Origin: Bacillota bacterium
GTDB lineage: Bacteria > Bacillota_I > Bacilli_A > RFN20 > CAG-826
Assembly: GCA_041177725.1 (NCBI GenBank)
Contig: JBEDAR010000005.1
Span: forward strand, 1 to 31,255
Reading direction: 5' to 3'
Length of the DNA: 31,255 nt
Positions 1 to 27,887 of this stretch are shown here, piece by piece. Positions within the stretch are counted from its first letter, which is position 1. The number at the start of each line of letters is the position of its first letter. The translations under genes and the position numbers were made by a program. Below the pieces are notes generated by a model. That model did not search any database. It had not been told where the DNA came from and saw only the letters and a list, made by a program, of their open reading frames with translations.

Positions 1-149
1 ATCTCTTTGCCTTTAACCAAATTCTCCAATATGCGCGTATCGGCAAGTGGAAAGATTATGTCTATGGCGAAAAGAGTTATGTGTGGTTAAGTTTAATTGG
101 TAAATCAACCTTAGCATGGTTGGTGTTTCTTGGCATTGTCTTGGCTTAA
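1..149 (+). CDS. Heliorhodopsin, C-terminal fragment (5' end outside window)
   Basis: Not in ORF track. Frame starting at nt 3 reads LFAFNQILQYARIGKWKDYVYGEKSYVWLSLIGKSTLAWLVFLGIVLA*, with TAA at 147-149. This fits the heliorhodopsin TM6-TM7 pattern (Q.LQY..IGKW.DY..GE..Y..LSL.aKS.LAW..F). The Lys at 102-104 sits in SLIGK (canonical SLVAK). Confidence 0.85.
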   Translation, partial: LFAFNQILQYARIGKWKDYVYGEKSYVWLSLIGKSTLAWLVFLGIVLA

Positions 150-665
150 AGAATCTAACCCTAATTGTCGATATACGTTCTGAATAAACGTTCCCTTCAT
201 CCTTAAATAAGCATCCATATCATATGGATGCTTTTTTGCTGCTTCAATCTTAATCGCTTGATGCGCTGATTTCATCTCGGGGTGTTTCCTTAAATAGTCT
301 CTAAAACCTATATGTCTTTTGAGTTCGTTTGCATTCGAGGCACAAACGTATACATGATGCTTTGGAAGTAGACTCCATTTTTTAAATTTAAACACTTCTC
401 TGCCGGGAATGCCTTGATCGCCCATGTGCCGATAACCTAATCGTGATAATTTAATGCTGACATCTTGAAAGGATTCGCTACCTTTCATTTCAATATCAAT
501 GTCAATGATGGGTTTGGCGGCAAGACCTTCAACTGATGTGCTTCCAATATGATGAATATAAGCATCGTCTAACGTCAATACCGTTTGTAGTCTTTTACGA
601 ATTTTTAGAAAGTTTTGTTTCCACACATGAGTGTATGGCTTCAACACAATCTTCTTTTGTTTCAT
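111..665 (-). CDS. GrpB family (UPF0157) nucleotidyltransferase-fold protein
   Basis: Motifs HHIGSTSVEGLAAKPIIDIDI, LGYRHMGDQGIPGREVF and HIGFRDYLRKHP are characteristic of GrpB. Confidence 0.85.
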   Translation of the reverse strand: MKQKKIVLKPYTHVWKQNFLKIRKRLQTVLTLDDAYIHHIGSTSVEGLAAKPIIDIDIEMKGSESFQDVSIKLSRLGYRHMGDQGIPGREVFKFKKWSLLPKHHVYVCASNANELKRHIGFRDYLRKHPEMKSAHQAIKIEAAKKHPYDMDAYLRMKGTFIQNVYRQLGLDSLSQDNAKKHQPC

Positions 666-684
666 TCGATCTAATCATCGCACA

Positions 685-2040
685 TCAGTTGTTCTTCAAC
701 GTGAGTAAAAGAATCGTTTCCACGTGGTAAGTTTGAGAAAACATGTCAACCGGTTGTACATACTTAACCTCATAGGTGTCTGATAAATATTTAATATCCC
801 TTGCGAGCGAAGATGGTTCACAAGAAATATAAACAAATCGTTTAGGTTTAATAACTTTCACCGATCGTAAGAATGCTTCATCACAACCTTGCCTAGGTGG
901 ATCAACAAACAACACATCATAGGTTTTGCCTTTGGCGGCTCGTTCCACTAAGTAAGGAGCAGCATCCGCTTCAATAAATGAAACATTTCTAATTTCGTTT
1001 AGTTTTGCATTTTCAATTGCATTCAACACCGCATCCCGAACAATTTCAACACCTGTGACATGCTTGGATTGTTTCGCTGCGAGTAAGGTAATGGTTCCCA
1101 CACCTGAATAGGCATCAAGGACCACATCGGTAGGTGTGAGATTGGCAATCGATAAGGCTCGAGCATAAAGTTTCTCGGTTTGAAATGGATTCACTTGAAA
1201 AAAAGATTTGGCTGCAATCTTAAATTTAAGTCCGGATAATGAATCTTCAATATAACCATCACCAAATAAAATATGTTCACGGTATCCCAAAACCACATCC
1301 GTAAATTCAGGGTTAATATTTTGAACAATCGTACGAATGTTGGGAAAAGCTTTTAAAAGCGCATCAACAAAAATTTGTCTTTCTGGAAAGTTAATTTTAC
1401 CGGTGACAAGCACTACCATCAATTGATTAGTAACAATGCCTTTTCTCACCATCACGTGGCGAATGAATCCCTTACGGTATTTTTGATCATAGGCTTCAAT
1501 GTGATGTTCGATACAAAGTTTTTTGACCAAACGCACAATTTGATCAGCTTCTGTGTTTTCGATTAAGCATTCATCAATATCAATGATCCGATGACTACCT
1601 TGTTGGTAAAGACCAGCGATGAGATTACCTCGTTCATCACGACCAAAAGGGAATTGAACTTTATTTCGATAATGAAGTGGTTTCTCACTTGGGATGATGT
1701 CATCGACTTTCCCGTTATAGTCACCCATGCGTCTTAAGACTTCTGCTACGCGCATCTTTTTCATTTTTAATTGTTCTTGGTAAGAAAGGTGTTGCAATTG
1801 GCAACCACCACAAACCTCATAATATTGGCAAGGTGGTGTCACCCGTTGCGGTGACGTTGTCAGTCGCTTAGCGATTCGACCTTCCGCATATTTACCGCGG
1901 TTGTTGGTGATCACAATTTCTGCTTCTTCTCCCATCAATAAATAAGGAACAAAAATGGGTAAACCCTCGTGTTTAACGACACCTTTACCATCATGCGTAT
2001 AATCAATGCAAACGCCTTTAATGTGGCGGATGGGGTTCAT
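685..2040 (-). CDS. rlmD: 23S rRNA (uracil-C5)-methyltransferase, RlmD/RumA family
   Basis: N-terminal TRAM-like domain; Fe-S motif CQYYEVCGGCQLQH; SFFQVN; DAYSGVGTI SAM motif; VDPPRQG; catalytic YISC; DMFSQTYHVE. Confidence 0.9.
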   Translation of the reverse strand: MNPIRHIKGVCIDYTHDGKGVVKHEGLPIFVPYLLMGEEAEIVITNNRGKYAEGRIAKRLTTSPQRVTPPCQYYEVCGGCQLQHLSYQEQLKMKKMRVAEVLRRMGDYNGKVDDIIPSEKPLHYRNKVQFPFGRDERGNLIAGLYQQGSHRIIDIDECLIENTEADQIVRLVKKLCIEHHIEAYDQKYRKGFIRHVMVRKGIVTNQLMVVLVTGKINFPERQIFVDALLKAFPNIRTIVQNINPEFTDVVLGYREHILFGDGYIEDSLSGLKFKIAAKSFFQVNPFQTEKLYARALSIANLTPTDVVLDAYSGVGTITLLAAKQSKHVTGVEIVRDAVLNAIENAKLNEIRNVSFIEADAAPYLVERAAKGKTYDVLFVDPPRQGCDEAFLRSVKVIKPKRFVYISCEPSSLARDIKYLSDTYEVKYVQPVDMFSQTYHVETILLLTLKNN

Positions 2041-26522: not shown

Positions 26523-27887
26523 TTACGCTTTTTTTAATCGTTTTTGTAATTGATCGATTGCGGTGGCAATTGCCTCATCAACTTTCAACGATTTTTCCAC
26601 TTTTTTCACAGCGTTCATCACCGTGGAGTGATCTTTACCACCAAAGAGAGCACCAATCTTTAAAAACGGCACATCTAATAGTTGGCGAATGAGATACATG
26701 GCAATATGTCTAGCCATTGCAATCTGATTCGTCCGTATTTTACCCGTTAGTTGCTGATTGGTTAAATTGTAATAATCTGCCACCGTATTGATGATTCTGT
26801 TTTCAGTTAAAGATGATGGATTCGATGATCCAATGAGTGGTTGCACAGATTCAATGGCGATATCCATGGTAATGTGTTTGGTTTGTTTGATGTTGATGAC
26901 ATAAAACACCAAGCGATTTAACGCCCCTTCTAATTCACGAACATTATTTGAAAAGCGTTCGGCGAAAAAATGAAAAACTTCTTCATCAAAGTAGGTGATA
27001 TCAAGGCCGTTAGCCTCGATCTTCTTTTTAAGAATGGCAACGCGAGTTGGTAAATCCGGAACCGTAATATTCATGGTAAGACCGGAACCAAATCTTGTGA
27101 CTAATCGCGCTTCTACACCGCGTATTTCACTAGGATGACGATCGCTGGTTAAGATAATTTGTTTTCCAGAATTAATTAAGTGATTAAAAATATGGAAGAA
27201 CATCTCTTCCGTTTTTACCTTTTCCGCCAAAAATTGGACATCATCAACCATTAACACATCAATAGATTTAAAAAAGTCCTTCATATTATCGGAATCTTTT
27301 TCACCACTCACATACTTAATGAATTCATCCACAAAATCGTCAGTGGTGATGTATAAGACCTTTAATGAGGGGGCGTTTTCTCTAATGTAATTGCCAATCG
27401 CATGAAGCAAGTGTGTCTTTCCTAAACCTGACTGTGCATAAATAAAGAGTGGATTATAGTTGAATAACTTTCCAGGACTAGAAGCGATTAAAACTGCCGC
27501 TTGATGCGCTTCACGATTGGAAGTGCCGACCACAAAATTATCAAAGGTGTATTTGCGATTGACAAAAGAGCTAGCAAAAAAAGAAGGCTTCTTTTCAGTT
27601 TTTTTAGCATTCTTTTCTAAATCACCCTTTTGTAGAAAGGAGAGTTTAAAGTTTGTTTGAGTGACTTCGGTCACGGTCATATTTAAAACATCTAAATATT
27701 TAGTGGAAAGTAAATTGGCGGCCAATCCAGAATTAACCACAATCTTAATTTCGTTATTCTCGAGGGATTGAATGTAAGTGTCTCCAAAAAAAGAATCAAA
27801 AATATGACGGTCGTTAATGCGGTTTTGCAATTTATCAAGGACACGATCCCAAATTTGCGCTATTTCAGATAAGGTTGGGTTTACCAT
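26523..27887 (-). CDS. dnaA: Chromosomal replication initiator DnaA
   Basis: YTFDNFVVG, YNPLFIY..SGLGKTHL, DDVQFL, SDRHP, RLVTRF, NVRELEGAL and GGKDHSTV. Start placed at MVNPTL (27887); the track's upstream extension runs through DnaA-box DNA. Confidence 0.97.
   Translation of the reverse strand: MVNPTLSEIAQIWDRVLDKLQNRINDRHIFDSFFGDTYIQSLENNEIKIVVNSGLAANLLSTKYLDVLNMTVTEVTQTNFKLSFLQKGDLEKNAKKTEKKPSFFASSFVNRKYTFDNFVVGTSNREAHQAAVLIASSPGKLFNYNPLFIYAQSGLGKTHLLHAIGNYIRENAPSLKVLYITTDDFVDEFIKYVSGEKDSDNMKDFFKSIDVLMVDDVQFLAEKVKTEEMFFHIFNHLINSGKQIILTSDRHPSEIRGVEARLVTRFGSGLTMNITVPDLPTRVAILKKKIEANGLDITYFDEEVFHFFAERFSNNVRELEGALNRLVFYVINIKQTKHITMDIAIESVQPLIGSSNPSSLTENRIINTVADYYNLTNQQLTGKIRTNQIAMARHIAMYLIRQLLDVPFLKIGALFGGKDHSTVMNAVKKVEKSLKVDEAIATAIDQLQKRLKKA

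Follow-up and report, generated by a model that had tools for sequence, protein, structure and literature searches.

The 3' end of a heliorhodopsin gene, probably intact, at a contig edge and its glycine-marked clade in freshwater Bacilli

Results

The locus at the start of the contig

The window (the whole 31,255-nt stretch of DNA analysed here) begins at base 1 of contig JBEDAR010000005.1 (C5) of the MAG GCA_041177725.1 (G000), an assembly of 920 kb in 112 contigs that is 79.6% complete and has 38% GC. Its first open frame translates to 48 residues, which the initial annotation took for the C-terminus of a heliorhodopsin. This identification stands: against Pfam PF18761 (Heliorhodopsin; curated cut-off 26.7 bits) the fragment scores 67.5 bits (E 1.4e-18; profile positions 197-241 of 242), which is far above chance, and an orthologue described below passes the full-length profile, the full-length alignment and the fold comparison. 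A frame at a contig edge could in this case be identified reliably from 48 codons alone. These codons run from the last part of TM6 through a loop predicted to be cytoplasmic (TM6-TM7) and TM7 to the C-terminus, which is predicted to be extracellular, and the 5' ~615 nt of the gene, or the first 80% of the MAG's own copy, are missing from the assembly. The frame had also been called unannotated, and it looks so only because the gene runs off the contig.

Several residues of known importance fall within the fragment (Table 1). Gln213 of the actinobacterial heliorhodopsin 48C12 is a neighbour of the beta-ionone ring, at a site known to tune colour (PMC7049168, PMC7807009), Glu230 is a residue of the Schiff-base cavity (PMC7049168), and Ser237 hydrogen-bonds the Schiff base (PMC7049168).

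The convergent GrpB-family gene, the first gene of a conserved downstream synteny block, overlaps the 3' end of the heliorhodopsin frame by 39 nt (window 111-149). Within the 3' end of the GrpB frame, 60 nt beyond the heliorhodopsin stop codon, lies a terminator-like hairpin that is conserved in congener G003, and the heliorhodopsin transcript probably ends at this hairpin and the T-run that follows it. An Rfam scan of the window gave no match. At window position 116 all four public runs compared read G where the window has A, a synonymous difference in the third base of an Ala codon; the A represents either a minority variant or another population.

Table 1. Features at the start of the window. 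Positions are those of the window; residue equivalents follow 48C12 numbering.
Feature	Position	Strand	Basis
Last 48 codons of the heliorhodopsin gene (open frame)	3..146	+	PF18761; tail identical to 253-aa orthologue in G003
Conserved Gln codon, = Gln213	18..20	+	alignment to 6su3
Glu codon, = Glu230	69..71	+	alignment to 48C12
Trp codon at the Val235 position	84..86	+	clade-versus-rest comparison
Ser codon (AGT) of SxxxK, = Ser237	90..92	+	alignment to 48C12
Gly codon (GGT) preceding the Lys, at the Ala240 position	99..101	+	clade marker
Lys codon (AAA), = Lys241, retinal Schiff-base lysine	102..104	+	alignment to 48C12
Stop codon TAA of the heliorhodopsin gene	147..149	+	sequence reading
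Terminator-like hairpin (11-bp stem, 3-nt loop), then T-run	209..239	+	fold -17.5 kcal/mol, z -3.0
GrpB-family gene, convergent	111..665	-	Pfam PF04229, 157 bits; synteny in relatives

The full-length protein, judged on an orthologue

As a proxy for the whole protein I used the orthologue from congener G003 (P0003, 253 aa), whose last 48 residues are identical to those encoded in the window. The initial annotation had proposed looking in the full protein for a match to the heliorhodopsin HMM, for seven TMs and for the TM3 counterion Glu, and P0003 has all three. It scores 264 bits against NCBIfam NF038020, the heliorhodopsin HeR equivalog, for which the cut-off is 100, and it aligns end to end with 48C12 and TaHeR (E ~1e-48, 38-41% identity). 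Its AlphaFold2 model, for which the same alignment served as input (pLDDT 81, pTM 0.76), has seven long helices in a heliorhodopsin fold and a beta-hairpin in the AB loop (strands 38-48 and 51-61), a typical feature of heliorhodopsins. In Foldseek the model matches heliorhodopsin structures at TM 0.85-0.88 (0.87 to 6is6, TaHeR; 0.85 to 6su3, 48C12), whereas type-1 rhodopsins reach at most 0.66.

By alignment, P0003 carries all the residues listed for the Schiff-base region and cavity of 48C12 (PMC7049168): N8, H15, Q18, S75, H79, Y90, N99, R102, W103, E105 (the TM3 counterion), Y106, S109, N136, E147, P172, W173, Q211, Q214, Y224, E228, S235 and K239. These are invariant in 27 clade members, E105 included, except for Y90, W103 and Y224, whose conservation is 90% or more. 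Among the cavity residues tested (His23, His80, Asn101, Arg104, Glu107, Tyr108 and Glu230 of 48C12), the window itself shows only Glu230. A count of Lys plus Arg, a prediction by crude segmentation in which the TM3-4 and TM5-6 loops were left unresolved, gives 1 at the N-terminus, 3 in the TM2-3 loop, 3 in the TM4-5 loop, 4 in the TM6-7 loop and 0 at the C-terminus; the AB loop has 1 by the same segmentation, with three more Arg at the edge of TM1. By the positive-inside rule this distribution would favour the inverted topology, with the N-terminus inside.

How close is this protein to the heliorhodopsins of known structure? Apart from its predicted fold, the orthologue shares with 48C12 (6SU3, 6UH3, 9LJJ) and TaHeR (6IS6, 7U55) the equivalents of the Schiff-base Lys, Ser237, Glu107, His23 and His80, Arg104, Glu149, Glu230, Gln213 and Pro172/Trp173. 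It differs from 48C12 in having Gly for Ala240, Trp for Val235, Trp for Cys166, Asn for Ile142, Tyr for Leu202 and Met for Gln148. The hosts differ too, being Actinobacteria or Thermoplasmatales for the two reference proteins and Bacilli of an apparently wall-less type here. Within the classification of Kovalev et al. (2020; PMC7049168), subfamily 8 is bacterial, has Tyr at 202 and Asn at 142, and retains Asn138; the orthologue is bacterial and has Y200, N140 and N136 at positions 202, 142 and 138, so that it resembles subfamily 8, an assignment made on these three marker residues only.

Glycine before the lysine marks one clade

The initial annotation had singled out the Gly before the Lys as a variant retinal motif. 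The variant is real and is rare across the family: a set of 134 diverse representatives, reduced by clustering at 50% identity, has Ala before the Lys in 85 cases, Ser in 25, Thr in 7, Val in 4 and Gly in at most 4, of which only one or two are well aligned. It is not private to this genome, however. In 120 close database clusters, all full-length members that are at least 61% identical have Gly at this position (SLFGK 75, SLIGK 36, SLVGK 3, SLGGK 1) and the more distant matches have Ala. Species-representative genomes are divided just as sharply, with Gly in 40 of 40 loci at 61% identity or above and Ala in 39 of 39 loci at 52% or below.

The 41 rows with Gly are monophyletic (SH-aLRT 99; stem length 0.58) in a maximum-likelihood tree built from 181 sequences. 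Their sister is an SLIAK sequence, and one unrelated Gly occurs elsewhere on the tree. As judged from these sequences, the replacement of Ala by Gly before the Lys is a single ancient change and the marker of one clade, whose hosts are apparently wall-less Bacilli similar to Izemoplasmatales and Acholeplasmatales. About 12 further substitutions are fixed on the same stem: T44R, 55Y, 89K, I119L, 129E, 153P, C166W, 197P, I198G, S201F, I234V and V235W in 48C12 numbering, together with Leu for Gln at the C-terminus, beyond the aligned 48C12 numbering. Besides the Gly, the window fragment contains I234V, V235W and the C-terminal Leu; the Trp at 235 has a frequency of 1.00 in the Gly clade and 0.04 elsewhere, where the residue is Ile or Val.

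The relatives already carry the label "heliorhodopsin HeR" in GenBank, so the family is a known one. The 2020 classification paper (PMC7049168) does not mention Gly before the Lys, and in the literature searched I found neither a report of Gly at this residue nor a paper that joins heliorhodopsin with Acholeplasmatales or Izemoplasmatales. Other replacements at the site have modest effects: A240S shifts absorption by ~5 nm to the blue, A240T shifts it to the red, and natural Ala/Ser swaps amount to 5-6 nm (PMC7807009). The Gly may alter the photochemistry, as the initial annotation suggested, and the expected effect would be small.

Some GenBank MAG titles (for loci L051, L055, L085-L090 and others) are plainly wrong or doubtful, such as 'Staphylococcus epidermidis' on freshwater congeners and 'uncultured Muribaculaceae' on heliorhodopsin loci of Bacillota type.

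A second heliorhodopsin in the same genome

The MAG also encodes a complete heliorhodopsin of 275 aa with the motif SLVAK (contig C14:12357-13181, L003:1456-2283; PF18761, 278 bits), which groups with SLVAK heliorhodopsins of Izemoplasmatales (SH-aLRT 98). It is of the same family and of the same Tyr202/Asn142 type as the Gly-type copy and is likewise conserved across the genus, but the two are only ~50% identical over the tail, the paralog has Ala before the Lys, and its neighbourhood is another. Downstream of it, in the same orientation, lie a tocopherol-cyclase-like gene (PF14249) and a gene for an alpha/beta hydrolase; upstream lies a divergent alpha/beta hydrolase gene. Two congeners keep the downstream pair, even with a protein identity of 51%, and the pair was not seen next to the heliorhodopsin of the Izemoplasmatales relatives. 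Both types of heliorhodopsin are kept in 13 of 17 congeners. Assembly JAGYLV01 contains two Gly-type copies on different contigs (L073, L074), and two others (L060 with L098, and L072 with L106) contain one Gly-type and one SLLAK copy each; paralog pairs thus occur outside the genus as well.

Upstream neighbours

The upstream genes, whose inspection the initial annotation had called for, could be read in relatives. Immediately upstream of the heliorhodopsin gene in the closest of these, and in the same orientation, is a DUF4287 gene of ~80 aa. Farther upstream in congeners come one or two HTH_3 regulators, a DUF1801 gene and an ABC exporter pair. The regulators are tandem proteins of 420-490 aa, with the HTH_3 (Xre-type) domain at the N-terminus and a large uncharacterised C-terminal part, that lie between the ABC pair and the heliorhodopsin gene (L025:9556-12277, L046:109-2716 and, in the present MAG, C48:57-2739); they are paralogous to one another and their number varies among species. 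In the present MAG these upstream genes sit on contig C48, the low end of which faces the gap, so that the gap between C48 and C5 should be only about 1 kb. A partnership with the ABC exporter was considered as a link at the level of the clade and was rejected; the genes directly adjoin only in G001.

A gene cut by the assembly

Several lines of evidence bear on whether the 48 codons belong to a whole gene. On the other contigs of the MAG a PF18761 search and a permissive tblastn found no N-terminal part, and only the C14 paralog and the window fragment itself appeared. A 28-aa match on contig C42 (E 0.06) was considered as the N-terminal part and treated as noise. When 40 relatives were searched with the 48-aa peptide, 15 of the 17 congeneric genomes proved to have an orthologue (79-100% identical), each time within an open frame of 256-329 aa, and the protein is ~253 aa long. 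The G003 tail has 100% protein identity, and over window positions 1-720 the DNA identity to G003 is 96%. The downstream order in the window (GrpB, an RlmD-like methyltransferase, an EEP-family phosphatase and further genes) is common to several congeners, where it follows the full-length gene.

Public sequence also extends across the contig edge. A 1,281-nt contig from run X1 covers window positions 1-128 with one mismatch and continues ~1.15 kb upstream. Public contigs diverge from the window after position ~137 (runs X1 and X3), and this strain-variable sequence is the likely cause of the break in the assembly. Separately, in a 9.6-kb public contig from run X4, about 2.7 kb of additional sequence separates window positions 715 and 720. 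As the divergence in X1 and X3 and the insert in X4 show, the gene content between the heliorhodopsin and the RlmD-like gene varies among strains, which matches the variable inserts in congeners.

Synonymous and nonsynonymous codon differences to the closest orthologues number 4:0, 17:2, 17:2, 19:1 and 19:2 (row L011, mis-registered with 97 nt differences, was left out). The differences are almost all synonymous, so the frame is under purifying selection. As evidence of expression, one metatranscriptome contig (window positions 1-142) is too little for a claim and may represent carried-over DNA. The gene thus appears to be truncated by the assembly rather than in the cell, as judged from the orthologues and the X1 contig.

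Host, habitat and light-related genes

What kind of organism carries this gene? Close relatives, MAGs that come from the surface waters of rivers and lakes, bear the labels Bacilli or Bacillota; among clade members at 61-72% identity the labels are Izemoplasmatales, Acholeplasmataceae, Tenericutes or Mollicutes. Near-identical DNA was met in ten studies, for the most part in metagenomes from fresh water, and some runs labelled 'subsurface' or 'marine' also contain part of the window. Searches of G000 and of four congeners with a completeness of at least 90% (G005, G008, G010, G013) gave no PBP transpeptidase (PF00905), and each of these five genomes has only one Mur-ligase-like gene, possibly FolC; cells of this freshwater genus are probably wall-less. 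The host had been described as a genome-reduced, Mollicutes-like member of the Bacilli with a light sensor about 26 kb from the origin in a sunlit habitat. The size of the MAG (0.92 Mb at 80% completeness), the missing transpeptidase and the labels of the relatives agree with the first part, and dnaA at window positions 27072-27560 agrees with the second. The sunlit habitat is supported by the freshwater metagenomes, the surface-water congeners, a photolyase, carotenoid genes and the second heliorhodopsin. The organism lives in fresh surface water, and its genome is of about 1.1 Mb.

Contig C42 (L036:7084-10799) carries a crtI-family desaturase gene and a phytoene/squalene-synthase-family gene in one operon and, divergent from this crtI/crtB operon, a class II CPD photolyase gene (TIGR00591, 505 bits). 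The synthase gene of this type is present in all five congeners tested. A route to retinal, which the initial annotation had proposed looking for, did not emerge from the search of a genome that is 80% complete and of four congeners of at least 90% completeness: neither RPE65 (PF03055) nor a lycopene cyclase (PF05834, PF18916) turned up in these five genomes, the PF05834 search giving only two weak matches of Rossmann type (18 bits), and Blh (PF15461) was not found either, a weak negative since the control genomes were silent too. With neither a cyclase nor a cleavage enzyme found in these genomes, the product of the C42 operon is probably an acyclic or C30 carotenoid and not retinal, and the retinal is most likely scavenged from outside.

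Discussion

The window very probably begins with the true 3' end of an intact and functional heliorhodopsin gene that was cut by the assembly, and this gene belongs to the Gly clade and to a freshwater host among Bacilli of the wall-less type. At the level of sequence, membership of the family, the integrity of the key residues and purifying selection are established. The full protein would be ~253 aa long, with seven helices and a cytoplasmic N-terminus, and would bind all-trans retinal through a Schiff base on the Lys of TM7, held by the Ser of the SxxxK motif and the Glu counterion in TM3. Within the clade the residue before the Lys changed from Ala to Gly once, along with about 12 other changes that were fixed, which include Trp at 235 and Trp at 166, the latter aligned with a fenestration residue; the host also carries the canonical SLVAK paralog. 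Such a protein would presumably be a slow-cycling light sensor or regulator and not a pump, and the Gly and the changes fixed with it would give it a spectrum or kinetics slightly unlike those of the paralog.

Could the Gly clade differ from other heliorhodopsins in kind and not only in degree? On this reading, which I consider rather unlikely, the changes fixed together reshape both the pocket around the chromophore and the side opening, and retinal uptake, the binding of a carotenoid antenna or signalling is of a different sort as a result. About 13 positions are fixed on the one long stem, several of them in TM5-TM7, and position 166 aligns with the fenestration or carotenoid-site residue of Cv06 (bioRxiv 10.1101/2025.11.27.691015), although this mapping comes from sequence alignment and reasoning. 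The retention of both paralogs by most congeners in genomes of ~1 Mb argues for roles that are useful and not redundant. However, no polar residue in the Schiff-base region or the cavity has changed, the known effects at the residue before the Lys amount to only ~5 nm, and the Tyr202/Asn142 pattern is common to the paralog and to a described subfamily. That the Gly clade is a separate type of heliorhodopsin, giving wall-less freshwater Bacilli with ~1 Mb genomes two-channel light sensing beside the canonical paralog, is a doubtful proposition; in that event Gly240, Trp235, Trp166, Pro197/Gly198 and Phe201 would change the acquisition or the tuning of the chromophore.

Improbable, in my judgement, is a function like that of OcHeR, which modulates the heterodimeric multidrug ABC exporter OmrDE in response to light (PMC11109279), that is, light-triggered binding and up-regulation of the ABC exporter encoded upstream. 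The attraction of the idea is that several congeners have two half-transporter genes (ABC_membrane plus ABC_tran, similar to SmdA/SmdB) upstream in the same orientation, which is also the gene order of the precedent; in G001 these genes end 73 bp before the heliorhodopsin gene, and in the present MAG they lie on the contig that faces the gap. However, one or two large HTH_3 genes, a divergent DUF1801 gene and the DUF4287 gene intervene in this MAG and most congeners, and two congeners (L051, L052) have a wholly different neighbourhood. Beyond the genus, 25 clade loci (L058-L083, L091, L095) have no such ABC pair within 6 kb, and other clade members adjoin two-component systems or DJ-1/PfpI. 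The resemblance to OcHeR-OmrDE is one of gene order, and the case differs from the precedent in that the link is not clade-wide and is interrupted by regulator genes in the lineage of this MAG.

It is more doubtful still that the protein assists the class II CPD photolyase of the genome in the manner of TfHeR. The genome does encode such an enzyme, and the precedent, cited in PMC11109279, comes from another member of the Bacilli, but the photolyase gene lies beside crtI/crtB on contig C42, adjacent to neither heliorhodopsin gene, and an operon link such as defined the TfHeR case is not present.

Finally, the idea that the 48 codons are a dead remnant, a decaying or truncated pseudogene with nothing functional upstream, can be put aside as very improbable, for although so little of the gene was assembled and its N-terminal part was found on none of the other contigs, the break falls precisely at base 1 of the contig, the tail is identical in protein to that of an intact orthologue (96% DNA identity; four synonymous and no nonsynonymous differences), a public contig runs ~1.15 kb further upstream, the strain-variable sequence past position ~137 accounts for a break in the assembly graph, and the stop codon and terminator hairpin are conserved.

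An intact heliorhodopsin of the Gly clade, cut by a contig edge, thus seems the best account of the locus. It does not add a system of a new kind. The Gly before the Lys is a natural variant, shared by a whole clade, at a colour-tuning site, and it has co-evolved with about a dozen other changes; the occurrence of a Gly-type and an Ala-type heliorhodopsin in one genome of ~1 Mb is a natural paired comparison. Freshwater hosts similar to Mollicutes, apparently with neither a cell wall nor a route to retinal but with a photolyase and a carotenoid operon, offer a simple setting for how monoderms obtain their chromophores and use light signals.
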